From NCBI GenBank assembly GCA_003554965.1, contig PWHR01000063.1, positions 30,134 to 94,133 of the forward strand: 64,000 nt of DNA, given 5' to 3'. The translations under genes and the position numbers were made by a program. Within the stretch, counting starts at the first letter, position 1. Each line of letters starts with the position of its first letter. The notes below the pieces were generated by a model. It did not search any database and was not told the DNA's origin. It saw nothing but the letters and a program-made list of their open reading frames with translations. The DNA comes from Thermoplasmata archaeon. GTDB lineage: Archaea; Thermoplasmatota; Thermoplasmata; Halarchaeoplasmatales; Halarchaeoplasmataceae. Positions 40,349 through 56,652 of the stretch are shown piece after piece.

Positions 40349-40372
40349 TCTTAACGGATAAGGTGATTTATA

Positions 40373-40639
40373 ATGGTGGATATGGAAGAGAGGATAATCA
40401 ATATCCCTTTAAGGAAGGCTAAGAAGAGTCCAACCAGCAAAAGGGCTGCAAGAGCCATGAAGCTCGTAAGAGAGCACGTGGCCAACAATATGGATGTTCC
40501 AAAAGAAGATGTGTGGATCGATTCCAGCACGAACGAGGAGATCTGGTCGAGAGGGATCAAGAAACCCCCCTTGAAGATAAAGGTCAAAGCTATCAAGTTC
40601 GAAGATGGGATAGTAGAGGTCTCCATACCGAGAGAGTGA
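40373..40639 (+). CDS. rpl31e: 50S ribosomal protein L31e
   Basis: ERIINIPLR, RAARAMK, IWSRGIKKPP. Confidence 0.96.
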   Translation: MVDMEERIINIPLRKAKKSPTSKRAARAMKLVREHVANNMDVPKEDVWIDSSTNEEIWSRGIKKPPLKIKVKAIKFEDGIVEVSIPRE

Positions 40640-40642
40640 GCT

Positions 40643-41296: not shown

Positions 41297-41935
41297 TCAC
41301 AGGGAAAAGGCCCATACCTCGGTTTCATCGGGCAGGTCTTCCTGTATAAAATCCAGTTCGATCCCCAATTTGTGTGTCTTTTTTTCCGGATACTGTGAGA
41401 AGAAAGGTTCTAGTGTCTTGATATCCAGTGAAAGTCCGCTAGTCTTGTAATGCATGGGGACCGCTATCTTCGGTTCGATCATATCTATCAATTCTTTCGC
41501 CTGATCGGGTTCGATGGTGAAGTTGCCGCCAACGGGTATGAATAAGAAGTCGACTTCTCCTATCTCTTCAAGGATCTCTTCATCAGGGATATGACCTAGA
41601 TCACCTAGATGACAGAAATTGACCCCTTCATTCTCAAACATGTAGATTATGTTCTCCCCTCTTATATCCCCTCCTGATTCGTCGTGATATGTTGCGATGC
41701 CTTTTATCTTCACACCGTTGATCTCCTTTTCTGATGCCTCATCTATAATCTTGCTGTCTTCTTTTTCTACCTCTCTCACCGCATTATGATCGTAGTGGTC
41801 GTGAGAGACCAAGATGATATCTCCTTCCACTTGGGGAGGAGTTATGCCTATACTTTTTCCGTCGTGGGGATCAGTGACTATTATATTTTCCTTTCCGATC
41901 TCAAAACAAGCATGACCATGCCATCTTATCCTCAT
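41297..41935 (-). CDS. Metallo-beta-lactamase fold hydrolase
   Basis: WHGHACF, TDP, SHDHYDH, HLGDLG, PMHY. Confidence 0.9.
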   Translation of the reverse strand: MRIRWHGHACFEIGKENIIVTDPHDGKSIGITPPQVEGDIILVSHDHYDHNAVREVEKEDSKIIDEASEKEINGVKIKGIATYHDESGGDIRGENIIYMFENEGVNFCHLGDLGHIPDEEILEEIGEVDFLFIPVGGNFTIEPDQAKELIDMIEPKIAVPMHYKTSGLSLDIKTLEPFFSQYPEKKTHKLGIELDFIQEDLPDETEVWAFSL

Positions 41936-42047
41936 CTTTTGCCACCTAGGAAAATAGGATTGAATCTGAAGATTTAAGATTTTTGCCCGGTCGCGACGAC
42001 TTTTCAAGGGTAAAAATAATAAATGATAGGGTCGGATTGAGGTAGCG

Positions 42048-43976
42048 ATGAAAGACGAGATGGATTCTCTAGAGGTAAGAGCAGCGGTAAGAGAATTGAA
42101 AGATCTGGAAGGAGGTCATGTGAAGAAGATCTATCAACCGAATGAAGATGAGATATTATTGCGGATCTACGTGCAGGGGAAATCAAACAAGATGCTGCTT
42201 TTTAGAGTAGGGAAAGGACTGTTCCTGACCGAGGAGGACAAAGACAACCCGATGAAGCCGGGCGACTATGTCATGCTGATGAGGAAGTACACCGGCAACG
42301 CAAGGATCGAATCTGTGGAGCAGCATGGATTCGATAGGGTGTTAACTTTTCAGCTTCAGAGGAATAAGAGGAGCAGACTGATATTCGAGATATTCGGTAA
42401 AGGCAACCTCATACTGGAAGGAGAGAAACATATCTTGGTACCTTACCGATCCGAGAGCTGGAGCCATAGGGAATTGAAGGAAGGTCGAAAATACAAATTT
42501 CCTCCAGAAAGAGTAGAGCCTTTCAAATTGGACTTAGAGAGTTTCGAAGAGATATTGGAAGGATCAAAAAAGGACCTTGTAAGAACACTAGCGGTAGATC
42601 TTAATCTCGGAGGCAAGTATGCAGAGGAGGTCTGCTACAGGTTGGGAGTGGATAAAAATCTCGATCGACCTGAAAAGTTATCCGAAGAACTTTACTCGGA
42701 ACTGAAAACTTTGAGAAAGCAGACGGAAGTCGACGATCTAGAGCCCATGATAGTGAGAGACTCTGAAGGAGAGATAATAGATGCGGTCCCGTTCCCACTG
42801 GCGCAGTACGAGGATCATGATACTGAAAGCATGGATAGTTTTAATCGTGCACTTGATCTCTCATTTAGTATAGAAGAAGAGGAAGAAGAGAAACAGGAAG
42901 AAGCGGGTAGATTGGAGAGAAAGCTTGAGAGCCAAAAACGCGCCGTTGAAAATCTAAAAGAAAAAGAGATAGAGAATAAGGTCAAGGCCGAGCTGATCTA
43001 CCAGAATTATAAGAGATGTGAGAACCTCCTGAAAGAGATAAAGAGAGCGAGAGCCGAAGGTTCGAAGGAGAAAATTTACTCTAGATTAAGGAAAGAAGAG
43101 GATGTTAAGCAGATAAACGATCACGATCAGTACATGGTAGTTGAGTTAAAAGGTGAAGTGGACGACGAAGATATATCTGAGAACGTAAAACTCGATTTCA
43201 GGAAAGATGTGAATGAGAACGCCCAACACCACTATGATAAAAGCAAAAAGTCCAAAGAAAAGATAAAAGGAGCTGAAAAAGCTATAGAGGAAACGAAAAA
43301 GGAGATCGCAGCCGGGGAAGAGGAAAAAGAGAGAGAGGAAAAGGAGCCGACGGTGAAGTTTTGGTTCGACAGGTACAAATGGTTCATCTCCAGCGAGGGT
43401 CATATAGTAGTCGCTGGAAAGGATACGAAGACTAACGAAGAAGTGGTGAAGAAGTATCTGGAGAAGGGTGATAGGTACGCCCATGCCGATGCTGGCGGGG
43501 CACCTAGTGTCGTTATAAAGAAAGGCGAGAAAGACGAGATAGGGAAGAAGACTCTAGAAGAAGCCTGTCAGTACGCAGTCGTACATTCAAAGGAATGGAA
43601 AAGAGGGGTCGCAGCGGGAAGGGCTTACTGGGTCAAACCGTGGCAGGTCAGCAAGACTGCAGAGGCAGGAGAGTCCCTACCTACTGGAGCCTTCGTTATA
43701 AGGGGAAAAAGGAACTATATGGACGATCTTCCGATGGAAGCAGTTCTGGCCGAGACAGAATATAGAGACAAGAAAAAGGTGATGTGTGCCCCTTCTTCAG
43801 CATTAAAAGATAGGCAGAACGAAAAAGGATCGAGTAAAAAAGTAATGTTCATACCTGGAAAGAAAGATATCAACGAATTCGCTAACGAGATGTCAGATTA
43901 TTTCAGGGTCCCTATAGACGAGATCCAGAAGGTGATTCCTCCAGGAGATGTGAATATAGTAAAAAAAGAGGGTTGA
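42048..43976 (+). CDS. rqcH: Ribosome quality-control protein RqcH/Rqc2 (NFACT)
   Basis: FDRVL, GNLIL, NAQHHYD, WFDRYKWF.SS, GKD..TNE, HAD..GAPS, GAFVIRGKRN. Confidence 0.92.
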   Translation: MKDEMDSLEVRAAVRELKDLEGGHVKKIYQPNEDEILLRIYVQGKSNKMLLFRVGKGLFLTEEDKDNPMKPGDYVMLMRKYTGNARIESVEQHGFDRVLTFQLQRNKRSRLIFEIFGKGNLILEGEKHILVPYRSESWSHRELKEGRKYKFPPERVEPFKLDLESFEEILEGSKKDLVRTLAVDLNLGGKYAEEVCYRLGVDKNLDRPEKLSEELYSELKTLRKQTEVDDLEPMIVRDSEGEIIDAVPFPLAQYEDHDTESMDSFNRALDLSFSIEEEEEEKQEEAGRLERKLESQKRAVENLKEKEIENKVKAELIYQNYKRCENLLKEIKRARAEGSKEKIYSRLRKEEDVKQINDHDQYMVVELKGEVDDEDISENVKLDFRKDVNENAQHHYDKSKKSKEKIKGAEKAIEETKKEIAAGEEEKEREEKEPTVKFWFDRYKWFISSEGHIVVAGKDTKTNEEVVKKYLEKGDRYAHADAGGAPSVVIKKGEKDEIGKKTLEEACQYAVVHSKEWKRGVAAGRAYWVKPWQVSKTAEAGESLPTGAFVIRGKRNYMDDLPMEAVLAETEYRDKKKVMCAPSSALKDRQNEKGSSKKVMFIPGKKDINEFANEMSDYFRVPIDEIQKVIPPGDVNIVKKEG

Positions 43977-43984
43977 ATGATTTT

Positions 43985-45406
43985 TTACTCGGCTTTTAAG
44001 AAATTTCTATAACCTTCACAGAGGTAGTAGAGGTCAGCTTTTGATATCACTTCGAAGGGTGAGTGCATACCGAGCAGGGGTATACCTATATCGACCACGT
44101 CTATATTGAGGTTTGCTAAGAATTTAGCGACAGTACCTCCGCCTCCTTCGTCAACCTTCCCCAATTCAGCAGTCTGCCATGGGATGTCGTTCTCGTTGAA
44201 TATCCTCCTGATCAATGCTACGTATTCGGCGTGGGCGTCGTTGCCAGAGAATTTTCCTCCTGAACCGGTGAATTTCGTGATAACCAGACCTTTTCCAAGG
44301 GAGGATGCGTTCTGTACATCATGAACGTCCTTGAATGAAGGATTCAAGCCCGGACTCACGTCTCCAGAGATCGCTTTCGAATTATCCAGCATGATCCTGT
44401 GTTCCTGCATGTTGTAAGTACCTTTGTATTTATTCAGAAGTTTTGAATAGACTGTCAATAGGAAATCAGAGTTCGCTCCAGTGTTGCCTTCACTACCGAT
44501 CTCTTCCTTGTCAAAAAATAGGACGAGTGCGGTCTTTTCAGGAGCGTCTATTTCTGTTAGAGCTCTAAGTGACGAATAAGCGCATACACGATCGTCATGG
44601 GCATAACCACCTACCATGCTCTTGTCCAATCCCACATCTCTACACTTCCCGGCAGGAACTATCTCAAGCTCAGCGCTCGTAAGATCTTCTTCGGTTATGC
44701 CGTACTCGTCGTTTAAAAGCTTCAAGACATTTGTTTTTACTTTATTTTCGACATCTTCGTCATCTATCGGGGTGCCAGCTATCAAGATATTGAGCTCTTC
44801 GCCTTTGATGACTTTAGGCATCTTCCTTTCTCCCTGTTTTTTTCTAGAGAGATGAGGTAAAAGATCGCTGATCACGAAGACGGGATCCTCTGGATCTTCT
44901 CCGATGGTTATATCGACCGGAGTTCCGTTCTCCTTGACCACTCTTCCGTGAACGGCTAAAGGTGTGTTGACCCACTGGTACTTTTTGATGCCTCCATAAT
45001 AGTGGGTCTGAAGAAGAGCCACTGATGCTTCTTTGTCTTCATAGAGAGGTCTAGCTTTTAGGTCCAGCCTCGGAGCGTCGATATGGCTCGCTACTATATT
45101 GCAGCCTTTTGTCAACTCTTCTTCCCCTATCACAGCAGCGGCCAAGCTCTTGTGCCTGTTGATCATGTAAACTTTATCTCCTGCTTTCAGCTCATCGTAT
45201 TCTGAGATGTCTTTGAAACTGTTCTCCCTCAATATCTTTTCAGACTCCTCAACAGATTTCCTTTCGGTTTTAGATGAACTCAAGAAATCGATATAATCTT
45301 TCGCAAAAGTGAAGATCTCTTCTTGTTTTTCATCTTCGATCTCTTCCCAGATATTTTCAGGAGAAAAACCGAGTTCGCTTTCAAGGTCCGAATCGTTTTC
45401 GCTCAT
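43985..45406 (-). CDS. M18-family aminopeptidase
   Basis: SHIDAPRLDLK, HDDRVC, DKEEIGS, GGGTVA, LLGMHSPFE. Confidence 0.93.
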   Translation of the reverse strand: MSENDSDLESELGFSPENIWEEIEDEKQEEIFTFAKDYIDFLSSSKTERKSVEESEKILRENSFKDISEYDELKAGDKVYMINRHKSLAAAVIGEEELTKGCNIVASHIDAPRLDLKARPLYEDKEASVALLQTHYYGGIKKYQWVNTPLAVHGRVVKENGTPVDITIGEDPEDPVFVISDLLPHLSRKKQGERKMPKVIKGEELNILIAGTPIDDEDVENKVKTNVLKLLNDEYGITEEDLTSAELEIVPAGKCRDVGLDKSMVGGYAHDDRVCAYSSLRALTEIDAPEKTALVLFFDKEEIGSEGNTGANSDFLLTVYSKLLNKYKGTYNMQEHRIMLDNSKAISGDVSPGLNPSFKDVHDVQNASSLGKGLVITKFTGSGGKFSGNDAHAEYVALIRRIFNENDIPWQTAELGKVDEGGGGTVAKFLANLNIDVVDIGIPLLGMHSPFEVISKADLYYLCEGYRNFLKAE

Positions 45407-45494
45407 GATATCAGCGAGATTTCAGGATGGCGGTGTTATATATTTTTTCCCGAGATATGTCGAAGATTTGACCTGCAATTGTCATCAGTATTAA

Positions 45495-45752
45495 AAGGAG
45501 AAAGAGAACTATACAGGAGAGTTCGATTAGCTGATCGAAGAAGGCAGTGGTGATCATAGGCTACGGATAGAAAGTCTTGACAATGAGACCGAGGTTTCTT
45601 TGGCGGTCGAGTCTTAGGAAACTTTCTTCAGTCAATATTGGTATATACCTCTAATCGCCGCGATAGTAGTTTTAACCATCGTTCTGTTCGTCCTAAAAAA
45701 GAGAAAAGAAGAGGGGGAAGAAGAGGGAGAGGAAGACGAAGAAGAAGATTAG
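45495..45752 (+). pseudogene. Remnant 3' end of a membrane-anchored surface protein
   Basis: One frame reads KEKENYTGEFD*LIEEGSGDHRLRIESLDNETEVSLAVES*ETFFSQYWYIPLIAAIVVLTIVLFVLKKRKEEGEEE...D*, with TAG at 45528 and 45615 and no start codon. Confidence 0.7.
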
Positions 45753-45770
45753 GGATCAAAAAAATCAGGG

Positions 45771-46280
45771 CTAGGATATACCGTTTTCTTCCACAAAGAT
45801 CAGTATCATGAGGAGAACCCCTATACCAAGACCAATGGCTCCAAACACCAGGATAACTAGATACTTTAACAAATCGAATACACCTGAAAGAGGACTAGTC
45901 AAATGGATCTTCATATCTTCTTCAACTCTAAAGGTATATTCAACTTCTTCTTCTATATCTACTTCTCCTAGTCTCTCATAGGTCCTACTAAACACAGATA
46001 TAGTTTCCTTTTGACTCGCCTCTTCGAAAATGTCTTCTCCTTCCTCGTTTTTGATTCTAAGCTCTGTTTCGATATCTTCTCCTTTGATCCATATCTGATA
46101 AGTTCCTTCCTTTAACTCGATGGTTTTTTCCCGCTCATCTTCAAAATTCAGCGTTGTAATCGCTTCCTTTCTAGGGTCGTCAAAGGAATCAAATACGCCC
46201 TGGGTGGCTACAATAGACGTAAATATCCCTACGACGATCAATATGATACCGGCAATTATCAATAATTTTTTCTTTTCCAT
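45771..46280 (-). CDS. Hypothetical protein with N- and C-terminal TM helices
   Basis: Hydrophobic ends around an acidic beta-rich central region. Confidence 0.7.
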   Translation of the reverse strand: MEKKKLLIIAGIILIVVGIFTSIVATQGVFDSFDDPRKEAITTLNFEDEREKTIELKEGTYQIWIKGEDIETELRIKNEEGEDIFEEASQKETISVFSRTYERLGEVDIEEEVEYTFRVEEDMKIHLTSPLSGVFDLLKYLVILVFGAIGLGIGVLLMILIFVEENGIS

Positions 46281-46543
46281 TCTCCCTCTGTAGATACCTC
46301 ACTAATTACATATAATTTTTGTAGAAGATACTTTGATTCTAAAGCCGTTACAGTCTTATCCACCGTTCGAGTAACAGCAAAAGAATGGTAAGATTGGAAA
46401 AATCTTTGATTAAAAATGTATAGATATTCCAGTGGTTAATATTAGCCGTGATTCTAGAATGAGTGTAGTTTAGATGTCAATCAAATCACCACAGTTTACA
46501 AATATAGCTGGGCATTTAACCTCACCGTAAATCAGGGTTTAGC

Positions 46544-47440
46544 ATGGACCAGATAAGAAGTTTCCTAGAGATCAGCAGGTGGCGTATCCAGCTTGTTTCT
46601 TTAGCCACCATACTTTTGGGACCGCTTTATGCGGCTGGTTCATTAGGAGATCTACTGACTTGGGACCTCTTTTTGTTCGCTGTACTGTTTATCTTTTCTA
46701 TAACCTTCGCCTGCAATATCAACTGCTATCACGATCTCAAAGTGGACTCCTTGAGAAAAAAAAATCTTGCCCACGCAGTTTTGAATCTTGGTAGGAAAAA
46801 ACTGAGGAAGATAATGCTTATTGAAAGCATTGTAGTTTTTCTGTTGGTCTTTATATTATTTCTCAGAGGTTATATTGCGGTTACAGTCATAACTCTTTTC
46901 GGTTGGATTCTATCTTATACCTACTCCTCACCCCCGATCAGACTTAAAACTAGAGGAGTGTTAAGTCCGATCCCTGTGAATATCGGGGTCTATGTACTGC
47001 CTATTCTAGCTGGTCACTTGATAATCTCTTCCGATGTGAGTCTGATATTCCTTCTTTTCATCTTAGGTTACGCGCTTCTGAATCTCGGGATAAACCTAGT
47101 AAACGTCGCAGAAGATCATCGGGAAGACAAGAAATGTGGTATAAAGACGATCTCTCATGTTGTTGGTATCAAAAACACCATGGTGCTTTCTTCCCTGACC
47201 ATTATCCTTGGTTCGATCATAATCCTATTCAGTCTATACAGTATGGTCAATAATCTAACTTCAGGATTTGTTTATACGGTTATGCTGATATGTTTATTGA
47301 CTGCTTTTCTTGACATAACTTCCGTTTTGAAGCACAAAAATATAGAAAGAAAGACAAAGGAAAAAGGGGCTAGACTGCCTTTGTATTTTGTAAGCACTCG
47401 CTATCCCATGGTTGTGCTCCTATTGATTAATCTTCTCTGA
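46544..47440 (+). CDS. UbiA-superfamily prenyltransferase
   Basis: Multi-TM; Asp-rich motifs NCYHDLKVD and NVAEDHREDKKCGIKT; YSSPPIRLK (MenA-like loop). Confidence 0.85.
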   Translation: MDQIRSFLEISRWRIQLVSLATILLGPLYAAGSLGDLLTWDLFLFAVLFIFSITFACNINCYHDLKVDSLRKKNLAHAVLNLGRKKLRKIMLIESIVVFLLVFILFLRGYIAVTVITLFGWILSYTYSSPPIRLKTRGVLSPIPVNIGVYVLPILAGHLIISSDVSLIFLLFILGYALLNLGINLVNVAEDHREDKKCGIKTISHVVGIKNTMVLSSLTIILGSIIILFSLYSMVNNLTSGFVYTVMLICLLTAFLDITSVLKHKNIERKTKEKGARLPLYFVSTRYPMVVLLLINLL

Positions 47441-47449
47441 GAGATCAAC

Positions 47450-48535
47450 TCACTTCTCTGGATCTTTGATAAGCTTGTTAAAATACGCCGGCAGTTTTTC
47501 TTCAGTATTATCCAATGCGAGACATCCACAGATGGGTTCTGAATATTCTTGATTCATCTCGCTCCAAATTTTTTCTATATCCTGTTCGTATATATTCCCC
47601 CAGGTTTCCCTCAACATATCACAGGGATAGACGTCTCCTTGAGCACTGATATGCATGCGATTGTAACCTGCGGTGCATCCCATAAATCTCGAACTATCCA
47701 TGAAAGGGCCTGAGATGATCCTAGGGTAATCTGGATTCTTTTCCTTCTGAACATTCATCAAGTATTCTCTCTCATAAGGTTCTAAAATTTCATCTCTAGG
47801 ACCTATAATCGGCTCAAATATAGCTACATCAGTCACTCCTTTGGATCGAACGAATTTCAGGTAATCGTCTAGTTCCTCGATCATATCAGAAGTGACCACC
47901 ACCCACGTGGAAGTCAACATCCCTGCTTTTTTCACATTCCTTATCGTTTTCAAACTTCGTTCATATGCACCATCAAATCCCATCAGTTCATCGTTCTTCT
48001 TCTTTTCATGATGTTCTAGACCAACGAAAACACCTTGGCAACCAGCTTTTTTCAAAGATTTAGCCCTTTCATCAGATATGAAACCCGGGGAGGATATCAG
48101 AGAAATCGAAGAACCCGAAGCAGCTCTTACTAGTTCTTCAAGATCGTCTCTGAGTAAGGGGTTGCCTCCGGTAAATAAGAACTGAAATGTGCCGAGTTCT
48201 TTCAATCTCTTTATTGTGGAAAGCAGAACTTCCTTTTCGAGTACGCCTTCTTCGTTCCGAGTTACGCAGTGCCAGCAGTCATTTTTGCACTCAGTTGTTA
48301 ACGAGATGTTGACTATCTCGGGTACGGGCTCACCTTCAGAAGCTTTAAGTTGAGCTTTAAGAAAAGTATCGAAAGCTTCTGAAGGATAAGGAGGGAGATG
48401 TATAGAGAGGACCTTTTTTCCGTCCAATCTATCTGGTACTTTGGAATTATGGGTGCTTAGAGCATATCTTAATACGAATATCTTAAAACGCAGCGGAAGT
48501 TTTCTAAGCTTTCGATCAAAGAGAAGTTTCAACAT
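47450..48535 (-). CDS. Radical SAM / SPASM(twitch)-domain protein
   Basis: CKNDCWHC (CX3CX2C), TGGNPLLR, and C-terminal GCTAG...ISAQGDVYPC...CGC. Confidence 0.9.
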   Translation of the reverse strand: MLKLLFDRKLRKLPLRFKIFVLRYALSTHNSKVPDRLDGKKVLSIHLPPYPSEAFDTFLKAQLKASEGEPVPEIVNISLTTECKNDCWHCVTRNEEGVLEKEVLLSTIKRLKELGTFQFLFTGGNPLLRDDLEELVRAASGSSISLISSPGFISDERAKSLKKAGCQGVFVGLEHHEKKKNDELMGFDGAYERSLKTIRNVKKAGMLTSTWVVVTSDMIEELDDYLKFVRSKGVTDVAIFEPIIGPRDEILEPYEREYLMNVQKEKNPDYPRIISGPFMDSSRFMGCTAGYNRMHISAQGDVYPCDMLRETWGNIYEQDIEKIWSEMNQEYSEPICGCLALDNTEEKLPAYFNKLIKDPEK

Positions 48536-48538
48536 ATT

Positions 48539-49729
48539 TTATACCTCTAGAGTTAAGTCCTTAGCATCTATGAGTTCCTCGATGACCTTCTCTATATCTT
48601 CTTCCGGTTTTTCGCATGATTCTTTTATTTCCCCTAAAGTGTGCTCTCCATCCAGCAGCTTCAAAAGTTGGAGTATGTCTTTTTCAAACTCCATTTCACA
48701 TTCTCGGAAAACGATCTTTTCTCCGCTCTGCTCGTATGAGCCAAGTAGCTTAGGTCTGTAGCTCTCTTTCAAATCCGGTATCTCAAAATAGGTGGGCTCT
48801 CCATCCTTGTGGATAGGATAGAACGCGAAAACCGGAGCCTCTGCTCCGAATTTTTTCTTAAAAACGTACCGGTAGCTCTCTAATCCTGTAGTGGTCCCCT
48901 CACCTACAGCTTTCGCGAGAGAAAAAGGCGTGCCTGTAACGTCACCAGCTGCATAAAGACCCTTATCTATCTTTCCTCTTCTATCGGTCTTTATGAAACC
49001 GTTCTCATCCTTTTCGCAGTCGATGATATCGGTGGTCGAAGCTGAGAGTTGATATGATTCGAAATCTATATTGATATGATCCCCTACGATCTCATCATTT
49101 TTAGTTATAACTTTGATCTTTTCTTTTCCATCTTCTTCAAAGGTCTCATACTTTCTGATATTTTTCCCTTCATCTAACACTCTTTTCACATCCATCCTGC
49201 CCTGATTTATATCTTCAAAGAACTCCAAAGTTTTCTTTATTTCATGAGTTCCTACGAATATGATAGTCTTGCCTTTCTCCTCTTCACACAGTTTTTCGAA
49301 ATGATCTTCCATGAACCTGTAGCCTTTCAACGTACCGAAGAGCTTATCTCCGAAATGTTCTCTTTCGTTCCAAGTCATCCTCATGCCCGTTGCTATTATC
49401 ACCGACAGAGACCAATATTCTTCCTTATCCGTAGTAACTTTGAATAGGTCGTCTTTTTTTTCTACGCTGAGGACCTTCTCATTTTTAAGAGGGATAGAAT
49501 AGTCCTTCATATCTTTCATCAGGCTATCTCTCACTTTTCCTTTTTCAAACATCCAACCGTCTCCGGTCATCCTGACGTCGGTCCAATCGGATATACCACC
49601 AGGAGAGTAATTGGAGATGACCATCACGCTAGCCGGGATCAAGTTATAGGTTCTAATCCTTCTAGCTCTTGCAGCCGCTGAAAGACCGGCAGGCCCTGCT
49701 CCGACTATTATTATGTCGCTATCATACAT
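48539..49729 (-). CDS. Thioredoxin-reductase-fold flavoprotein lacking CxxC, with C-terminal PqqD/RRE-like wHTH
   Basis: GAGPAG, IIATG and GLYAAGDV FAD motifs; no CxxC; FVGTHE in place of GxGxxA; tail LLKLLDGEHTLGEI...EDIEKVIEELID. Confidence 0.75.
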   Translation of the reverse strand: MYDSDIIIVGAGPAGLSAAARARRIRTYNLIPASVMVISNYSPGGISDWTDVRMTGDGWMFEKGKVRDSLMKDMKDYSIPLKNEKVLSVEKKDDLFKVTTDKEEYWSLSVIIATGMRMTWNEREHFGDKLFGTLKGYRFMEDHFEKLCEEEKGKTIIFVGTHEIKKTLEFFEDINQGRMDVKRVLDEGKNIRKYETFEEDGKEKIKVITKNDEIVGDHINIDFESYQLSASTTDIIDCEKDENGFIKTDRRGKIDKGLYAAGDVTGTPFSLAKAVGEGTTTGLESYRYVFKKKFGAEAPVFAFYPIHKDGEPTYFEIPDLKESYRPKLLGSYEQSGEKIVFRECEMEFEKDILQLLKLLDGEHTLGEIKESCEKPEEDIEKVIEELIDAKDLTLEV

Positions 49730-49757
49730 CTTATCACTCTTATAAGCTTTCTATCAA

Positions 49758-50219
49758 TCATATACCTGTAACTTCATTGGATCTTATCATGTCAAAAACC
49801 CAATCGGGGAAGGTTTCAAATTCGAGTTCCTTTCCAGTTTCAAGTATGATCTGACCTTTTTCAGGCTGTACTTCTATCTTGTCGCCTTCATCGACTTGAT
49901 CTAAGATACCTTCTATTTTGATCGGCCAGATGCCATTGTTGATGCAGTTCCTGAACATATATCGAGAAAAACTTTCCGCGATCACACACTTTATCCCTGA
50001 CAATTTTATCGCCCAAGCTCCGCTCTCTCTTCCAGATCCCATACCGAAATACCTTCCGGCAACGATGATGTCGCCTTCTTCAACTGAACGATAGAATCCA
50101 GGTTCAACTCCTTCCATCAACCCTTTTAAGAGTTTCTCCTTATCTAAAGAGAAATATTCGCTTGGATGGATCTCGTCCAGGGTCACATCGTGGCCAAAAA
50201 CTCTTGCTCTACCTTTCAT
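49758..50219 (-). CDS. 3-isopropylmalate/homoaconitate dehydratase-family small subunit (LeuD/HacB-like)
   Basis: GDIIVAGRYFGMGSGRE, VIAESFSR..FRNCINNG. Confidence 0.88.
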   Translation of the reverse strand: MKGRARVFGHDVTLDEIHPSEYFSLDKEKLLKGLMEGVEPGFYRSVEEGDIIVAGRYFGMGSGRESGAWAIKLSGIKCVIAESFSRYMFRNCINNGIWPIKIEGILDQVDEGDKIEVQPEKGQIILETGKELEFETFPDWVFDMIRSNEVTGI

Positions 50220-51402
50220 CTTTTGCACCTCCGGTCGTTATGAAACCGTTGAGAGCTGAACGAGCGCAGACCTCAGCGTTCGCTATAAATATATCTCCTC
50301 CACCCATCCTTCCAGGATAGTTTCGGTTCTGGGTGGTGAGACATCTCTCTCCTTTCGCCATGAGTCCCTTATCTATCCCCGGACAAGGGCCACAGCTCGG
50401 GTTCAAGATCACGGCTCCCGCATCGACCAGTTTTTGGATAAAACCCTTTTCCAAAGCTTGGGTCATCACAAGTTTTGATGCCGGTGTAACCAAAAATCTG
50501 ACGTCTTCATGGACCTTCTTTCCTTCTAGTACCTCTACAGCCGTTTTCAGATCTGATAATCTTCCACTAGCACACGAACCAAGAAATACCTGATCTATGG
50601 TTTTACCTTCCTCTGAATACACCTTATCCACATTATATGGTCGGTGAGGTTTGGCTAAAAGGGGTTCTTCGATCGAAATATTGATATTTTCTGAGTGATC
50701 ATCCTCATCATATCCTGGAAAAGAGAAAGAACTGCTCATATCGAACCTCCTTAAATACTCTCTAGTGAGCTCGTCGGGAGGAAATACTGCCGATTTAGCT
50801 CCAGTTTCTGCTGCCATATTGCATATAGTCATCCTTCCGTCCATCTTTATTCCCGTTTTATCGACGAATTCTAAAAAGCGGTAATTGCCCTCATATTTCA
50901 GTTCATCTAAAATCGCAAGTGCGATATCAGTATGATCTTCTCCATCTTCTATCTCCACCTTGATAGTCTCTGGTACCTTGAGCCATATCTCTCCTTTCTT
51001 CAATATCTCCACTGTGTCACTAGCTCCGAAACCAACACCGAAAGCTCCCAGGGCGCCGTACATAGTAGAGTGACTGTCTATCCCCGCCACGATCTCACCC
51101 GGCTTCACTCTGCCTTCACACATCACCTGGTGACAGATACCTTCAGACTCTGCATGATCCTTTATCCCTTTTTCCTTGACGAAATCTCTAAACCTTTTTA
51201 CGAAGTCTGCTCTCTCCTCTGTACTCGGAGGGCAGAAATGATCTACTACTGTAGTAACTTTTTCTGGATCCCATATCTTCTCGTCCTCCATATCATCGAA
51301 TATCAGCGGAGCGTTTCCATCATGGATCATGACTCTATCGACTGATCGGGTTACGTATTCCCCTTCCTCTCCTTCAAGCATCTTTTCGGGGATGGTCGTC
51401 AT
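50209..51402 (-). CDS. 3-isopropylmalate/homoaconitate dehydratase-family large subunit (LeuC/HacA-like)
   Basis: DH, GICHQV, DSH, CNM..E.GAK, Fe-S ligands GSCASGR and SCGPC, NRNYPGRMG. Confidence 0.9.
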   Translation of the reverse strand: MTTIPEKMLEGEEGEYVTRSVDRVMIHDGNAPLIFDDMEDEKIWDPEKVTTVVDHFCPPSTEERADFVKRFRDFVKEKGIKDHAESEGICHQVMCEGRVKPGEIVAGIDSHSTMYGALGAFGVGFGASDTVEILKKGEIWLKVPETIKVEIEDGEDHTDIALAILDELKYEGNYRFLEFVDKTGIKMDGRMTICNMAAETGAKSAVFPPDELTREYLRRFDMSSSFSFPGYDEDDHSENINISIEEPLLAKPHRPYNVDKVYSEEGKTIDQVFLGSCASGRLSDLKTAVEVLEGKKVHEDVRFLVTPASKLVMTQALEKGFIQKLVDAGAVILNPSCGPCPGIDKGLMAKGERCLTTQNRNYPGRMGGGDIFIANAEVCARSALNGFITTGGAKDER

Positions 51403-52637
51403 CGATCTTCCCTCAATTCGTCGACGATACTCCAGAACCTATCTTCGGAGAAACCGAGCATTTCTTCGTCGTAATCGGTCTTGGTCTCTAAGAACTCTTC
51501 TATCTTCCATTTTCTATCAATAGTTTTTTCCTTTTCGATACGTCTAAGAATATCCTCTATCTTTTCATCAGAAAGTGAGATGTCTTTAGATTCTAACAGA
51601 TTTTTTACATAAGTCGGTCCAGAATGCTTTCCAAGCACGAACTCCCTCTCTCGCCCCACCTCTTCAGGACTTATCGGTTCGTAAGAATCTGTATGGGATA
51701 GTATTCCTGAAACGTGAACATCACTTTCATGCCTGTAAGAATTGAAACCGGAGATAGGTTTTTGAGGTGATAGATACAATCCCGACTTCTTTTCCACCAT
51801 CTTACAGAGTTCGTATAGATAAGTAGTATCTACTCCTGTGTCCACGTTCAACAGTTTTTCGGCGATCATGATGACCTCTTCCATAGCTGGATTGCCTGAA
51901 CTGTCTCCGAGCGAGTTCACAGTCAAGGTCGGATAATTCACTCCCGCTCTGATAGCAGCTACGGTGTTAGCCACTGCAAGACCGAAATCGTTGTGGCAGT
52001 GCACACCCCACTCCTCTCCACCTACCGATCCCACCACTTCTCGGGTGAAATTATACATCGAATCAGGTGTTATCGAGCTCGCAGTATCGCATATGATTAT
52101 GCGCCTGGTACCTCTTTCTCTGACGTCTGATAGGAGTTCTTTTACGAATTTTATATTTGATCTAGTTGTATCTTCGCTTATAAAGTCGTAATTCAACCCC
52201 AGCTCCTCTGCGTACTCTATAGTCTCTAGGACGTTATCTCTACATTCTTTTTCGGTCATATCGTTCTTATAGTGAAGATGGAATTTACTCGTAGTCGAAA
52301 ATATATATAGATCTTCAACTCCAAGTTCCACCGCAGTATCTATATCTTCTTTATTGCATCTGACAGTTGCTCCTACTTCAGCATCTAGATCCAATCCGAT
52401 CAGTTCGCGGATCGCCTCTCTTTCCCCTTCGGACATCATCGGAAACCCCGCGTCGATAACCGCGACTCCCATCTCATCCATCAATTTGGCTAGTTCTACT
52501 TTGTCTTCAGCATCGAAAACTACTCCGGGACTCTGTTCACCGCCTCTGAGAGTTTCGTCCCAGATGTGTATTTTTTCTGGAAGATGGTCTGCATCCATAA
52601 AATTCATATTATTATCTTCGATCAAAGGATCCATCAT
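51399..52637 (-). CDS. DRE-TIM homocitrate/isopropylmalate/citramalate-synthase-like enzyme with atypical motifs and no regulatory domain
   Basis: DETLRGGEQSPG, HCHNDFGLAVAN, GDSSGN, HESDVH, VLGKHSG. Confidence 0.85.
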   Translation of the reverse strand: MMDPLIEDNNMNFMDADHLPEKIHIWDETLRGGEQSPGVVFDAEDKVELAKLMDEMGVAVIDAGFPMMSEGEREAIRELIGLDLDAEVGATVRCNKEDIDTAVELGVEDLYIFSTTSKFHLHYKNDMTEKECRDNVLETIEYAEELGLNYDFISEDTTRSNIKFVKELLSDVRERGTRRIIICDTASSITPDSMYNFTREVVGSVGGEEWGVHCHNDFGLAVANTVAAIRAGVNYPTLTVNSLGDSSGNPAMEEVIMIAEKLLNVDTGVDTTYLYELCKMVEKKSGLYLSPQKPISGFNSYRHESDVHVSGILSHTDSYEPISPEEVGREREFVLGKHSGPTYVKNLLESKDISLSDEKIEDILRRIEKEKTIDRKWKIEEFLETKTDYDEEMLGFSEDRFWSIVDELREDR

Positions 52638-52663
52638 TACACCGATGGAATCATGATATATGG

Positions 52664-52671
52664 TTTATAAA
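52664..52671 (-). promoter_or_regulatory. TATA box of the synthase-dehydratase-flavoprotein-rSAM operon
   Basis: TTTATAAA 27 nt upstream of ATG 52637, the expected spacing for a leaderless or short-leader archaeal transcript. Confidence 0.5.
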
Positions 52672-52675
52672 TAGC

Positions 52676-53282
52676 TTACTGAATATCTTTGATGTTATAA
52701 AATTCTTGGTTGATCTTCTCGAAATTCGTTTTTTTTTGAGATATCCTGTTCACCTTAAATATGGTTGAAACATCCATTATCTTTTCAGTCTCCACTAGGC
52801 CGTCAGCTTTAAGAGTATTACCAGTCTCTACGATATCAACGATAGCGTCGGCGATGCCGATCTTTGGAGCAAGTCCTATTGATCCGTTCAGCTTGAACAC
52901 ATCCATTTTTACTCCCATCTGTTCCAGATACTTTTCCATTATATTGACATATTCAGTAGATATACTGTATCAATCGAGTTCCTCGATATCTAATATCCTG
53001 CACATTGGCATTGCAAAACTCAATCTACAAATTCTAAAAGACAGCTCTAAAGGAACGAATACGTCGTTATCTATTTCCTCTTAAACATCCTTCCCAGAAA
53101 TACCGATATCTATACCGTGTTCAACGTACACCGGCACGTCTAAAGCCTTCACCACAGAAACAGAACACGCTCCGTTCTTATATGGTATTTTTTGTCTTCT
53201 AGATAGGCTATATTCTACCGGCCTTTTCTAACATCTCAACGCTTTAGTCGAACAATCTTACTTTAAGCAGTACTATTTTCAT
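52676..53282 (-). pseudogene. hisG: ATP phosphoribosyltransferase (short-form HisG) pseudogene
   Basis: MKIVLLKVRLFD*SVEMLEKAG, frameshift, then [25 protein letters not shown]...CRL...[16 protein letters not shown]...[30 protein letters not shown]; several stops plus a frameshift. Confidence 0.88.
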
Positions 53283-53284
53283 GA

Positions 53285-54583
53285 TTAGAGGTCTTCATGA
53301 TCTTCTTTTTTCATGGACCTCTGTTTTATCGCCGGTAGTTCCTTGAGGTAGTCTTGCATCTCTTTCATAGCTATCGCCCTTTCTTCTCCTGTTTCCATAT
53401 CCTTAAAACTGACTTCTTCGTTCTCTATCTCCCTAGGTCCTATTATCAGGGCGTAAGGTATGTCCTTGGAATCTATGTACTTCAACTGTTTGGAAATACC
53501 TCTCTTTTTAAGATCCGTATCCACTCTAAATCCATCAGATCTCAACTCTTGTGTCAATCTTAGAGCCTCATCTCTTACTTCATCGTTCACGGGACAAACG
53601 TATATATCCGCTGGTCTGTACCGCTTTTCTTTCTTCTTTTTCTCCGTTATCTCCAGCAGTCTGTCGATACCTAATCCAAATCCAGTCGCTGGAACTTCCT
53701 GGTTTCCGTAGAGGCCTATCAAGGAATCGTATCTACCCCCGGAACATACAGAGCCCTTGTCTTCTTTACCTTTCAAAAAGGTTTCAAAGACAAAACCGGT
53801 GTAATAATCGAGTCCTCTAGCGATCGAAAGATCGATCTCGATATCCTCTTCAGATACACCTAATTCCTTCGCTTTATCGATGATCTTTTCTAGATTTTCA
53901 TCGGCATCTTTCGGAACATTTTCACTTTCGATCTGATCCATCATATCATCAAATTTATTCACGCTGACATCTTTCTCCATCAGTTCATCTCTGACTTCTC
54001 TTCTTGACTTTTTATCCAACTTGTCTATCGCCCTGAAAAGCTCCATCCTCTCCTCTTCATCAGTAGCTCCCGCCTCTTCCGCTATAGCCTCTGATATATC
54101 CCTAGAGTTCACTTTCATCGTGAATCTTTCTCCAGTCACGCTCTCGAGCAGGCCGTTAGCTATCTTGAGTATCTCCGCATCGGCTTCAGGTTCGTCTGTC
54201 CCTATGAGCTCGCATCCCGCCTGCCAAAATTCTCTCATCCTTCCAGCCTGCGGTTGATCGTACCTCCACATCCTGGTGATGTAATAGTACTTTATCGGCT
54301 TTGGTTTCGAGGGATCAGATGCCACTATTCTAGCTATCGGAACAGTCGGATCGAATCTCAAACCTAGTTTACGCCCGCCTTTGTCTTCGAAAGCGTATAT
54401 CTCTTCCTCTATCTGCGGACCAGATTTCTCTGCAAGGAGTTCGAAGTGCTCGAAAGCTGGAGTCTTAACTTCTCCATATCCATAGGTCTCGAATAGGTCT
54501 CTCATCTCTTTGTATATTTCCTGTCTTTCTTCGTTCTCCTCTGGTAGCAGATCTTTTGTACCTTTCGGTGGTTGCAGTTTCAT
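53285..54583 (-). CDS. hisS: Histidine--tRNA ligase
   Basis: PKGTKD, LRFDPT, WRYDQPQAGRMREFWQ, RGLDYYTG, GGRYD, GFGLGIDRL and a C-terminal anticodon-binding domain. Confidence 0.93.
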   Translation of the reverse strand: MKLQPPKGTKDLLPEENEERQEIYKEMRDLFETYGYGEVKTPAFEHFELLAEKSGPQIEEEIYAFEDKGGRKLGLRFDPTVPIARIVASDPSKPKPIKYYYITRMWRYDQPQAGRMREFWQAGCELIGTDEPEADAEILKIANGLLESVTGERFTMKVNSRDISEAIAEEAGATDEEERMELFRAIDKLDKKSRREVRDELMEKDVSVNKFDDMMDQIESENVPKDADENLEKIIDKAKELGVSEEDIEIDLSIARGLDYYTGFVFETFLKGKEDKGSVCSGGRYDSLIGLYGNQEVPATGFGLGIDRLLEITEKKKKEKRYRPADIYVCPVNDEVRDEALRLTQELRSDGFRVDTDLKKRGISKQLKYIDSKDIPYALIIGPREIENEEVSFKDMETGEERAIAMKEMQDYLKELPAIKQRSMKKEDHEDL

Positions 54584-54644
54584 ATATTATTCCTCCTTAT
54601 AAAAAATTTAGTGATTACTGGGAAAACAGTTTTGTTTAAATTGC

Positions 54645-54809
54645 GGAGAAAAGTAAAGCTTGAACTAAGGATGAACATAGTGCCCCGAGTTATCTTCTGA
54701 AACCGGGGCTGCCAAGTACTCCTTAGGATATTTCATCTTAACGTGAGGCGGATATCTCTTCTCAATATATATAATTTTCCATCTCTTTAAGGCGAGCTTA
54801 GTTTTCTCC
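54645..54809. repeat. 165-bp element with imperfect terminal inverted repeats and nested internal stems
   Basis: GGAGAAAAGTAAAGCTTG at 54645 vs the reverse complement of cgagcttagttttctcc (54793-809); CTAAGGA/TCCTTAG (54665/54720); GCCCCG/CGGGGC (54682/54704). Confidence 0.5.
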
Positions 54810-54836
54810 TGACGAGCGTAGCGAAAAATGGTGAAT

Positions 54837-55550
54837 TTAAACGAACGCGAAATAGGCAGGTAAAAGTAAGATAACATTATATATAGCATGCACTAAAATA
54901 GGCACTATCAGGTTCTCAGTTTTTTCATATAGTCCTCCCAATATAAGGCTTGCGACGGTCACCACCATTGCTCCCATTATTATAGGAAGAATCTCTCCAG
55001 CGTAATTGCCTAGATGTAAAGCACCGAAAAGTATACTAGCGATGATGATCGAAAACAGTGGTCCAAAATTCTGTCGTAATCTCCCCTGAATAGCTCCTCT
55101 AAAGAAGAGTTCCTCCGCTGGAGCAACAAGGATCACGGAGAGTATAGCCAAAGCTAACAAAAATCTTGGATCCTGCTCAGCGATGTCTTCAATAACTGAT
55201 TCGGGCATGAGATCTAAGGCGTGTATTATCTGAGATAAAGCTACCGCAGCAAGCAGCGTTATGACAGTTCCGCCGCCGATATAGCCAAGATCAGATCTTG
55301 AAGGTATTTCAATGGGGACTTTCACTTCCCTATAACGCACATAGAATACGGCTAAAATCAAAAATGCTATTTGCCCCAGAATAGTTACACCAAGCAGCAG
55401 GGATGTAGAATCTAAAGAGATGTCGTATCCAAGTGCCAATAAGAAGACTCCAAATATAACACCCAAAAATAAGGATAAAATCAGAGCGAATACAGTGAGA
55501 CCGATGACTTCGATAACTGGCCAAGCCCTAGAGTCTTCTAATCCTGACAT
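54837..55550 (-). CDS. CPBP (CAAX protease/Abi) family intramembrane metalloprotease
   Basis: EELFFRG, FGALH and HAIYN motifs; multi-TM. Confidence 0.92.
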   Translation of the reverse strand: MSGLEDSRAWPVIEVIGLTVFALILSLFLGVIFGVFLLALGYDISLDSTSLLLGVTILGQIAFLILAVFYVRYREVKVPIEIPSRSDLGYIGGGTVITLLAAVALSQIIHALDLMPESVIEDIAEQDPRFLLALAILSVILVAPAEELFFRGAIQGRLRQNFGPLFSIIIASILFGALHLGNYAGEILPIIMGAMVVTVASLILGGLYEKTENLIVPILVHAIYNVILLLPAYFAFV

Positions 55551-55622
55551 ATAGGTATCTCATGTATGTTGGTAATTGATATAATTTTTGATATCCGATT
55601 GAGTAAAGATCAAAAGACCTGT

Positions 55623-55979
55623 TTATCCCAATTCTTTCTTTATCTTTTCTGGTAACATCGGACCTATTCCTTTCACGTCTAGTGATTCTTCTTCACTAGC
55701 TTGTTCTATATCTTCTATTGAGATAAAACCATTATCGGCTCTGATTCTTCAGATTTTTAAGATTGTTCTTCAAACTCTTCTTTCCTGTATAGAAGTCTGG
55801 TCAAAGTTGGAGGTGTCAGAGTCAGTCTAAGAAGAAGCGGTTAATCTGATTTCTGCTTTTTCACCTACCTCAACGGATTCGGATATCAAGACCTTTACTA
55901 GAACTCTCACTATTTCCTCTTTTTCGACTTCCGCTTCGCTAGGACTTTCGGCATGTCAATCTTCAGAGGTGGACTCAAC
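55623..55979 (-). pseudogene. Decayed gene remnant: Ig/CARDB-like segment plus helix-hairpin-helix
   Basis: A single frame with 4 internal stops: ...D*HAESPSEAEVEKEEIVRVLVKVLISESVEVGEKAEIRLTASS*TD...ADNGFISIEDIEQASEEESLDVKGIGPMLPEKIKKELG*. Confidence 0.65.
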
Positions 55980-56043
55980 TTCGAGTGTATAAAATCACCG
56001 TTGAATATAAATACTTGTTTTCTTTATACATTCGTAGAATATA

Positions 56044-56619
56044 ATGCCTGCCGATGAAAAAGGCTCGGATGAAAGAGAGGAACCCATCGTGAGAAGTTTC
56101 GAGCTGAACTTCCATGGATGGAACATCGGAGGCAAACTTATATTCGTCGCTACCATCATAGCGATATTATCATTGTTACTTCCATGGATAGGTGAGAACG
56201 CTGAAACTGAGATGGGGTTCAGACAGGGTATGTCCGTTTTCCTTGCCTTCTACATCTATCCTTTCTTCATATTGGTGCAGGATAAAACGATGAGTAAGAT
56301 AGCCGGAGGCCTCTCTTCTATCTTGGCGGTTATCGCACCCGGATTCCTGCTTTATTACCTATCTAGAGATATGGCCTTAAGGATACCTGAGATAATGGAT
56401 TGGGGTATAATACTCTACATAATAACGGGCATACTTTTGATCATTGGAGTCTTCAAATACGAGAGATATTACAGGCACGGAAAACCAGAAGAAAAAGAGC
56501 CGCAGGTCCTAGAAAAGAAGAAAAAGAGAGGCAAACCATGCCCCGAATGCGACAGTCCCATGGAATATGAAGAGGAATGGGAAAGATGGTACTGCGAGGA
56601 ATGCGATAAGTACCAGTAA
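56044..56619 (+). CDS. Membrane protein with C-terminal zinc ribbon
   Basis: About 4 TM helices then CPECDSPMEYEEEWERWYCEECDKYQ. Confidence 0.75.
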   Translation: MPADEKGSDEREEPIVRSFELNFHGWNIGGKLIFVATIIAILSLLLPWIGENAETEMGFRQGMSVFLAFYIYPFFILVQDKTMSKIAGGLSSILAVIAPGFLLYYLSRDMALRIPEIMDWGIILYIITGILLIIGVFKYERYYRHGKPEEKEPQVLEKKKKRGKPCPECDSPMEYEEEWERWYCEECDKYQ

Positions 56620-56652
56620 ATCGTTTTAAAAAATAGCTCTATATGATTAACT

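Follow-up and report, generated by a model that had tools for sequence, protein, structure and literature searches.

A PqqD/RRE-type domain on a thioredoxin reductase-fold flavoprotein encoded in an uncharacterized cassette of archaea and bacteria

The PqqD-type domains known as RiPP recognition elements (RREs), after the ribosomally synthesized and post-translationally modified peptides (RiPPs), are winged helices of three strands and three helices (PF05402) such as those of PqqD (5sxy/3g2b), PbtF (8t19), lasso B1 (6jx3), and MftB. In the pyrroloquinoline quinone (PQQ) and mycofactocin systems, which make redox cofactors, an RRE is paired with a radical S-adenosylmethionine (SAM) enzyme of the SPASM family (PqqD with PqqE, MftB with MftC), and mycofactocin adds a flavoenzyme, MftD. 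RRE and flavin oxidoreductase are also found in one chain in ThcOx (5lq4) and in azoline oxidases of the BmdC/McbC type (7ly4, 6gos), which have an FMN nitroreductase fold and an N-terminal RRE and act on azolines bound to peptides or to nonribosomal peptide synthetases. Here we analyze a 64,000-nucleotide stretch of DNA from a Thermoplasmata archaeon (positions 30,134 to 94,133 of contig PWHR01000063.1, assembly GCA_003554965.1), hereafter the window. One of its genes encodes a predicted flavin adenine dinucleotide (FAD)-binding flavoprotein of thioredoxin reductase (TrxR) fold that carries a PqqD/RRE-type domain at its C-terminus, and this gene belongs to an uncharacterized cassette found in archaea and also in bacteria, among them relatives of sulfate reducers. 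Our search, confined to the openly accessible part of the literature, turned up no account of the cassette and none of an RRE fused to a TrxR.

The C-terminal domain of the window flavoprotein shares the strand-strand-strand and three-helix arrangement of the described RREs, is detectably homologous to them, and likewise has as its neighbor a radical SAM enzyme that bears a SPASM-type domain. It differs from them in its fusion to the C-terminus of a TrxR-fold flavoprotein, in its 2-oxoacid-elongation neighbors, and in lying below Pfam detection, and the gaps of six scanned cassette loci yielded no cluster-encoded precursor peptide. Relative to PQQ and mycofactocin, the radical SAM enzyme scores far below the model cut-offs, and the LeuA-, LeuC-, LeuD-, and UbiA-like genes of the cassette have no counterpart there. 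Unlike ThcOx and BmdC, the window enzyme is predicted to bind FAD, has the TrxR fold, carries its RRE at the C-terminus, and lies in a context that is not RiPP-like. By analogy, it may work like the RRE-plus-flavoenzyme tailoring proteins (ThcOx, BmdC, MftD with MftB), and it is a member of none of these groups.

The flavoprotein core and its C-terminal domain

Pfam searches with the flavoprotein returned Pyr_redox_2 (E 1e-12) and related FAD families and nothing else. Across an alignment of 42 family members (A1), in which identity falls to 26%, 23 columns are invariant. The FAD motifs GAGPAG (residues 10-15), GG (44-45), ATG (113-115), and AAGD (260-263) are present in the window protein, and G10, G12, P13, A14, G44, G45, G115, and A260-D263 are invariant in the family, which bears out an earlier first-pass annotation, made from the sequence alone, that had called these motifs intact. 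The TrxR fold proposed there is found as well: the best match of the A1 profile among PDB sequences of TrxR and of the NADPH-independent ferredoxin-flavin thioredoxin reductase (FFTR) is 6gnd (E 1.3e-29), and a Foldseek search with the flavoprotein model retrieved 3cty, 6gna, and TrxR-type ferredoxin-NADP reductases at E about 1e-16. The AlphaFold2 (AF2) model built on A1 has a predicted local distance difference test score (pLDDT) of 91.2 and a predicted template-modeling score (pTM) of 0.90, with the linker residues 301-320 at pLDDT 59-68.

Low-Mr TrxR, FFTR (6gna-6gnd), and TrxR-type ferredoxin-NADP reductases (3lzw, 3ab1) share the two-domain fold and FAD motifs of the flavoprotein. It lacks the CxxC that TrxR and FFTR possess and the NAD(P)H motif that TrxR and the ferredoxin-NADP reductases possess, and it adds a conserved linker and the RRE domain. 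None of the 42 family members has a CxxC at the TrxR position; an incidental CxxC lies elsewhere in two of them, and the four cysteines of the window protein include no CxxC. Similarly, GxGxx[GA] occurs at the second Rossmann position in 0/42 members, the window protein reading IIFVGTHE there. Both losses had been recognized in the first-pass annotation. With the NCBIfam thioredoxin reductase model TIGR01292 the flavoprotein scores 62.5 bits, below the cut-off of 343.45, such that three of four tests that define TrxB (CxxC, NAD(P)H motif, and model score) are failed, and the FAD motifs with the fold are retained. The flavoprotein is therefore best described, from its sequence, as a putative FAD-binding oxidoreductase of TrxR fold that has lost its redox disulfide along with its NAD(P)H site. 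Judged from its motifs it should bind FAD; it has no pyridine-nucleotide motif, and disulfide-reductase activity would be impossible for it. It is neither a stand-alone enzyme nor a thioredoxin reductase.

Conservation indicates that the gene is real. Homologs reach E 1.6e-248 (94% identity), with about 50 full-length relatives of ~400 aa among those listed, and an exhaustive search gave 102 representatives at E<=1e-10. One family member that is 31% identical, P0131 (537 aa), is ~120 aa longer, and its residues 487-532 weakly match the Pfam polyprenyl synthetase model (E 0.0076); either a fusion or read-through into an adjoining prenyl-diphosphate synthase gene could explain this. The linker residues K293, F294, A302, and P318 are invariant in A1, and the C-terminal string quoted in the first-pass annotation, located at residues 352-388, is followed by an invariant KDLTLEV tail.

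In the AF2 model the C-terminal domain (pLDDT 80) comprises four short strands (325-328, 333-335, 338-340, and 345-347), three helices (350-358, 365-371, and 376-388), and a terminal strand (392-395). The AF2 models thus show the defining arrangement of the RRE fold, in which three helices follow an N-terminal sheet of three strands. Sequence comparison points the same way. The homolog P0026, which is 45% identical and whose alignment takes in the domain, reaches 29.2 bits with Pfam PqqD at residues 364-410 (cut-off 23.4), and P0154 and P0028 score 21.1 and 16.7 bits; PqqD matches occur in 3/17 relatives scanned and in 2/42 sequences of A1. A profile of nine archaeal C-termini (A2) searched against 177,635 PDB sequences ranked the PqqCD chains 5vrd and 5sxy first and second, at E values of only 0.3-0.4. 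When the C-terminal columns of A1 were compared by hhalign with a reference alignment of 24 proteins found with PF05402 in Thermodesulfobacteriota genomes, the probability was 91.9% (P 7e-7, score about 37); another column rule gave a probability of 85%, with P ranging from 7e-7 to 6e-6. Controls consisting of 30 column shuffles and one reversed alignment reached at most a score of 11.5 and a probability of 0.3%.

Structural comparison of the C-terminal model with 48,161 chains by VIA-align retrieved the PbtF RRE (8t19) at Z 9.1, with a root-mean-square deviation (rmsd) of 2.5 Å over 75/86 residues, followed among RRE-bearing proteins by MibB (5ehk, Z 7.8), ThcOx (5lq4, 7.5), BmdC (7ly4, 7.5), MccB (3h5a, 7.3), LynD (4v1t, 7.3), TigE (8vpo, 7.3), lasso B1 (6jx3, 7.2), TbiB1 (5v1u, 6.6), and PqqD (5sxy, 6.3, 79 residues aligned; 3g2b, 5.1); the RRE part of 6gos gave 5.3. 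Over these RRE domains Z runs from 9.1 to 5.1 with 70-79 residues aligned, values that lie in the middling range of the tool, where Z <8 can reflect a common arrangement. A generic DNA-binding winged helix-turn-helix, which the first-pass annotation had named as the alternative, is disfavored: Fur, PerR, and ArsR winged helices gave Z <=5.7 with only 50-62 residues aligned. The RRE-bearing enzymes TruD, LynD, PbtF, TbtB, MibB, and MccB occupy the top, sub-threshold ranks of a Foldseek search with the same model. The nearest named clusters in a protein atlas are PqqD and MftB (score 0.82), matches that serve as leads only. Taking all sequence and structural-model evidence together, we assign the domain as a genuine PqqD/RRE type, in agreement with the first reading of its helical bundle.

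The cassette in archaea and bacteria

The flavoprotein gene is the fourth gene of a compact five-gene operon on the minus strand of the window, in the order LeuA-like, LeuC-like, LeuD-like, flavoprotein, and radical SAM enzyme, separated by overlaps or by gaps of 3-28 nt (Table 1). The radical SAM gene starts 3 nt past the flavoprotein stop and is the downstream radical SAM gene of the first-pass annotation; a UbiA-family gene is convergent with it, the two stops being 9 nt apart.

Table 1. Window coordinates of the flavoprotein gene, of the parts of its product, and of the adjoining cassette genes
Feature	Position	Strand	Size	Remarks
Flavoprotein open reading frame (ORF)	48539-49729	minus	396 aa	
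Flavoprotein, residues 1-295	48845-49729	minus		predicted FAD-binding TrxR-fold core; degenerate second (pseudo-NADPH) domain; no CxxC
Flavoprotein linker, residues 296-320	48770-48844	minus		KFG.EAPVFAFYP...; conserved, with invariant columns in A1
Flavoprotein PqqD/RRE-type winged helix, residues 321-396	48542-48769	minus		ends KDLTLEV
LeuA-like synthase (DRE-TIM, homocitrate/isopropylmalate synthase family)	51399-52637	minus	412 aa	first cassette gene
Aconitase-family large subunit (LeuC/HacA-like isomerase/dehydratase)	50209-51402	minus	397 aa	4-nt overlap with LeuA-like stop
Aconitase-family small subunit (LeuD/HacB-like)	49758-50228	minus	156 aa	specificity loop YFSL
Radical SAM enzyme	47450-48535	minus	361 aa	CxxxCxxC (C83, C87, C90); truncated SPASM (twitch-like); conserved 70-aa N-terminal extension
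UbiA-family membrane prenyltransferase	46544-47440	plus	298 aa	Pfam UbiA E 1.6e-25

The genome of the window (G000, 93% complete) and 24 others in its archaeal family belong to a set of 41 related genomes that was searched. The flavoprotein is encoded in 10/41: G000, 8 of the 24 others in the family, and one genome of another family (G033). At a threshold of E<=1e-30, a sample of 351 genomes of the phylum yielded a match in G000 and G022 only. Nine archaeal loci were fetched, and in 9/9 the radical SAM gene adjoins the flavoprotein gene; UbiA lies beside the radical SAM gene in eight, being missing in L082, and the LeuA-, LeuC-, and LeuD-like genes are adjacent in seven. Of the remaining two loci, one is cut by the contig end inside the small subunit, and G022 has the trio on another contig. 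The genes outside these six vary between genomes, which means that the cassette moves as one unit.

The trio and the flavoprotein gene stand together in bacteria too. A metagenome scan with P0044, a 31% identical homolog, gave nine loci, and the four of >=6 kb (L094, L095, L096, and L100) were examined, five of <=3.1 kb being left out; in 4/4 the LeuA-, LeuC-, and LeuD-like genes lie directly upstream of the flavoprotein homolog. In Thermodesulfobacteriota, the phylum of a Desulfatiglandales metagenome-assembled genome (MAG), 8/301 genomes encode a homolog, and the LeuA-LeuC-LeuD-flavoprotein order is present in seven of the eight. LuxE- and LuxC-like genes follow in six of these genomes, and one contig ends right after the flavoprotein gene. 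In the seven genomes with this order a B12-binding radical SAM gene precedes LeuA, and in some a second one precedes the flavoprotein. Among NCBIfam models, the conserved B12-binding enzyme comes closest to TIGR04190 (Ta0216 family; about 240 bits vs a cut-off of 500) and the extra one to TIGR04072 ("lipid biosynthesis B12-binding/radical SAM protein"; 314 bits vs a cut-off of 360), and LuxE and LuxC fall far short of their cut-offs. Some bacterial loci continue with genes for a U32-family protein and for a membrane protein of the VTT/DedA type.

Some radical SAM enzyme is encoded in every cassette examined, of the twitch/SPASM type in archaea and of the B12 type in bacteria. Across both domains of life the invariant core thus consists of the flavoprotein and the LeuA-, LeuC-, and LeuD-like proteins, accompanied by one or another radical SAM enzyme. 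The flavoprotein is the fixed fourth component after the LeuA-, LeuC-, and LeuD-like genes, and genomes carry this module as an accessory cassette. The first-pass annotation had picked out a SPASM radical SAM partner. That gene is indeed translationally coupled downstream of the flavoprotein gene, but its SPASM domain is only partial and B12-type enzymes take its place in bacteria; the upstream LeuA-, LeuC-, and LeuD-like genes, which had been missed, are the most tightly linked and most widely conserved partners.

The LeuA-like protein matches Pfam HMGL-like (E 2.6e-62) and HCS_D2, scores below every NCBIfam cut-off (e.g., LEU1_arch, 370 bits vs 484.75), and has homocitrate synthase 6ktq as its best PDB sequence match (E 1.2e-63). 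All five archaeal cassette LeuA-like proteins (window, L085, L086, L088, and L092) have LRGGEQ where the bacterial cassette copies and canonical relatives have LRDGEQ or LREGEQ, and the archaeal proteins have NSLGDSSGN in contrast to the NGIGERAGN of the bacterial copies and canonical relatives. The Asp/Glu that is replaced by Gly is a metal ligand, and metal binding or chemistry may be altered in the archaeal proteins. The LeuC-like protein matches Pfam Aconitase (E 1.9e-70) and reaches 406.2 bits with NCBIfam IPMI_arch (cut-off 410.15). The LeuD-like protein scores 143.4 bits with LEUD_arch, above the cut-off of 108.95. Its specificity loop aligns with YLVY in 3vba and YLRT in 2pkp, and nine cassette copies, archaeal and bacterial, have the common pattern [YFHA][FY][ST][LTP]. 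If, as we assume, the 3vba loop is an isopropylmalate determinant and the 2pkp loop a homoaconitate determinant, the cassette loop resembles neither type, and the lack of Arg points to a side chain that carries no distal carboxylate.

The radical SAM enzyme matches Pfam Radical_SAM (E 1.5e-20) and SPASM (E 1.7e-8), the latter over profile positions 1-46 of 67 only. After the core, conserved cysteines are found only at 287, 305, 336, and 338 (alignment A3), short of the full seven-Cys SPASM set, and the enzyme is probably a one-cluster protein with a twitch-like remnant of SPASM. Its nearest NCBIfam models are GeoRSP radical SAM, AhbD, and NirJ2 (90-100 bits vs cut-offs of 400-500), and the PqqE and MftC models match weakly (67.9 and 46.1 bits, far below cut-offs). 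The UbiA protein is nearest to PRK12875 and to the (bacterio)chlorophyll synthases, below cut-off.

Several further features of these loci were recorded. G012 carries two copies of the cassette (L082 on contig C149 and L084 on contig C40), with flavoproteins 67% and 65% identical to that of the window; one copy has no UbiA within 6 kb. In G033 (L088, 5928-8173), the first UbiA gene is followed by a second UbiA-family gene and by one for a 466-aa protein that neither Pfam nor NCBIfam recognizes, and the flavoprotein is 368 aa long, its C-terminal domain being without the strand region. In some relatives genes for DUF116, an Obg-like GTPase, an MBL-fold hydrolase, and an ABC1/UbiB kinase lie beside the cassette; G000 has them on other contigs, and they were rejected as cassette members. 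Outside the cassette, the radical SAM enzyme has as its nearest relatives (35% identity) 499-aa radical SAM-SPASM-TusA fusions in G039 (L089, 1968-3467) and G040 (L090, 2759-4258), which adjoin a class-V aminotransferase of the cysteine desulfurase type and, in G039, also a TusA-DsrE protein. These loci look like an uncharacterized sulfur-inserting radical SAM system, which hints at sulfur chemistry in the TusA-fused branch and is no proof of it for the cassette enzyme.

In the window, a decayed hisG (52640-53285, minus strand) lies between the cassette and hisS. An 87-aa ORF (52676-52939) matches Pfam HisG at positions 76-151 of 158 only, and since the upstream HisG-like pieces are broken by in-frame stops and a frame change, the remnant is probably a pseudogene. 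Proteins encoded at positions 40000-58000 are strikingly rich in Asp and Glu, e.g., the 672-aa protein at 56653-58671, which suggests a salt-adapted organism.

The missing dehydrogenase

The canonical leuA-leuC-leuD-leuB and homocitrate synthase-homoaconitase-homoisocitrate dehydrogenase operons begin with three genes whose families and order match those of the cassette. The fourth gene of the cassette is an unrelated flavoprotein in the slot of the Iso_dh-family dehydrogenase (PF00180), and the archaeal synthase has Gly at the Asp/Glu position. The single LeuC/LeuD-like pair of G000 is that of the cassette, and no Iso_dh family member was found in this 93% complete genome, with matches in 14/14 control genomes; nor was Iso_dh found in any of the eight other cassette genomes of the archaeal family. 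Searches for IlvD and IlvC likewise found neither in G000 and each matched 14/14 controls, and therefore the module is not one for branched-chain amino-acid synthesis. Leucine, isoleucine, and lysine biosynthesis were all rejected, G000 having no Iso_dh, IlvC, or IlvD and the cassette no LysX, LysY, LysZ, or LysJ.

Within the archaeal family, LeuC-like genes are confined to G000, the eight other flavoprotein-bearing genomes, and G016, and G016 is also the one genome of the 24 that encodes an Iso_dh. There the Iso_dh gene follows divergent homocitrate synthase and homoaconitase genes and is itself followed by LysX-, LysY-, LysZ-, and LysJ-like genes. By its gene content this set is a canonical lysine cluster, and because its Iso_dh holds the same position, the flavoprotein of the cassette can be placed in the Iso_dh slot of the canonical operon. 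The G016 cluster (L120, 1111-8765) looks complete, and a 240-nt gap in it is large enough for a LysW gene. G000 has a second LeuA-family gene (375 aa, 40% identical to that of the cassette) within 7456-11009 of locus L119 on contig C62; it adjoins genes for a cupin and for a hybrid-cluster/CO-dehydrogenase-family (Prismane) protein and has no aconitase partner.

Possible roles of the flavoprotein

The reading that we prefer, tentatively and with a little less than even confidence, is that the flavoprotein is the redox enzyme of an uncharacterized small-molecule pathway, probably lipid-linked, in which the RRE domain serves as a docking module and the product, as part of that reading taken whole, is a small molecule other than leucine or lysine. 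The synthase and isomerase would make a 2- or 3-alkylmalate, or an alkylmaleate, with a non-carboxylate side chain. The flavoprotein, working together with the radical SAM enzyme, would then carry out the redox step performed in canonical 2-oxoacid elongation by the Iso_dh-type dehydrogenase, or would reduce an enoate; its substrate might be the alkylmalate/alkylmaleate intermediate or a derivative of it processed by the radical SAM enzyme. The RRE domain might dock a partner protein, a carrier, or a peptide; docking on the radical SAM enzyme or a role as a lid are alternatives. In archaea the product would probably be prenylated by the adjacent UbiA enzyme, and in Thermodesulfobacteriota its carboxylate would probably be activated and reduced by LuxE/LuxC. 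With a membrane prenyltransferase closing the archaeal cassette and LuxE/LuxC-like enzymes closing the bacterial one, the product may be hydrophobic or lipid-linked, and UbiA in archaea together with LuxE/LuxC and the partners resembling "lipid biosynthesis" B12-binding radical SAM proteins in bacteria make a lipid-linked product likely.

A number of observations weigh against this interpretation. The absence of Iso_dh is drawn from MAGs that are 80-99% complete, and the flavoprotein itself has no match to Iso_dh (PF00180), the analogy with the dehydrogenase being one of gene position only. To our knowledge, no TrxR-fold flavoprotein oxidizes 3-alkylmalates or reduces alkylmaleates, and it is not obvious what an RRE domain would do in chemistry on free acids. 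One bacterial homolog (L117) lies among glycosyltransferases, without the module. As for the domain, the window protein has no Pfam PqqD match, even at E<=10 on the isolated C-terminus, for which the best Pfam match is the weak winged helix HTH_47 (E 0.0025); PF05402 finds nothing at E<=0.1 in the whole of G000, and it misses the bacterial cassette flavoproteins, e.g., in G076, which has four PqqD matches and none at the cassette. Foldseek with the C-terminal model gives no PDB match at E<=0.001, and in VIA-align, with its middling Z values, two unrelated GATOR1/SEA winged helices reach Z 9.4 and 9.1 at an rmsd of 4.4-5.6 Å. Finally, the function of the RRE may be dispensable, because the G033 lineage (P0029-P0033, 368-370 aa) keeps the cassette without the beta-strand part of the domain.

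It is also possible, and in our view unlikely, that the RRE binds a precursor or carrier peptide encoded elsewhere, and that the flavoprotein and the radical SAM enzyme modify this peptide or a small molecule held on it, following the logic of PQQ, mycofactocin, or PEARL systems, with the LeuA- and LeuCD-like proteins supplying or tailoring a building block. The fold and homology of the RRE-type domain would fit such a scaffold, as would the SPASM-type domain of the radical SAM enzyme, whose near NCBIfam models include the peptide maturases GeoRSP, PqqE, StsB, WgkB, and the mycofactocin maturase, and the presence of the RRE-bearing flavoenzymes ThcOx and BmdC among the structural matches. A peptide- or carrier-bound substrate had been suggested in the first-pass annotation, but it gains no support from the loci themselves: a scan of the gaps within and next to the window cassette and those of L088, L092, L094, L096, and L100, made without a genome-wide peptide search, revealed no conserved small ORF, and the 3-28-nt gaps of the window operon leave no room for one. 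Moreover, the constant partners are LeuA- and LeuCD-like and not a peptide maturase set, B12-binding enzymes stand in for the SPASM-type enzyme in bacteria, the radical SAM enzyme keeps four auxiliary cysteines rather than the seven of SPASM, and the part missing from the G033 lineage is the beta-sheet that binds leader peptides in RREs. A classical RiPP system is thus less likely than the small-molecule redox pathway.

Another candidate, raised already in the first-pass annotation and given a small share of our confidence, is that of a dedicated electron-transfer partner, in which the flavoprotein would take electrons from a non-pyridine-nucleotide donor such as ferredoxin, in the manner of FFTR, would pass them to the radical SAM enzyme or enzymes of the cassette, and would be docked on them by its RRE-type domain, as PqqD is on PqqE. 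Its closest solved relatives, which include the NADPH-independent FFTR (6gna-6gnd, E about 1e-29) and TrxR-type ferredoxin-NADP reductases, are consistent with such a role, and so are the occurrence of a radical SAM enzyme of some class in each cassette and the 3-nt gap in the window. Against it, the association with LeuA and LeuCD is more constant than that with any one class of radical SAM enzyme, a single RRE domain would have to recognize unrelated radical SAM families, radical SAM enzymes are normally served by a general ferredoxin or flavodoxin, and no donor site can be named in the flavoprotein.

A bolder proposal, which we hold to be rather improbable, is a new pathway common to one family of the class Thermoplasmata and some Thermodesulfobacteriota, in which the flavoprotein would replace the NAD-dependent beta-decarboxylating dehydrogenase, possibly passing the substrate's own electrons to the radical SAM enzyme, and would dock onto that enzyme by its RRE without any RiPP peptide taking part. 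The product would be a lipid-anchored metabolite or cofactor, prenylated in archaea and made via an aldehyde in bacteria. A phosphonate-type pathway was considered as well; the combination of homocitrate synthase-like, aconitase-like, and B12-binding radical SAM genes is that of the phosphinothricin and FR-900098 clusters. Last, a decayed, non-catalytic thioredoxin reductase paralog kept by chance or as a structural subunit would account for the loss of both canonical TrxR motifs, and is highly improbable given the invariant FAD motifs and 23 invariant columns among 42 sequences as little as 26% identical, the synteny kept between archaea and bacteria, and the confident model (pTM 0.90).

RRE/PqqD domains serve as a flag for peptide natural-product clusters. 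A conserved RRE on a TrxR-fold flavoprotein, encoded beside 2-oxoacid-elongation enzymes in a cassette without a visible peptide, would widen the meaning of these domains and could mislead RiPP genome mining. The cassette itself is compact, with five to seven genes, and forms an accessory module whose inheritance in archaea and bacteria is patchy. Should the flavoprotein indeed stand in for Iso_dh, a non-homologous replacement would have taken place in a module that is among the most conserved in metabolism.

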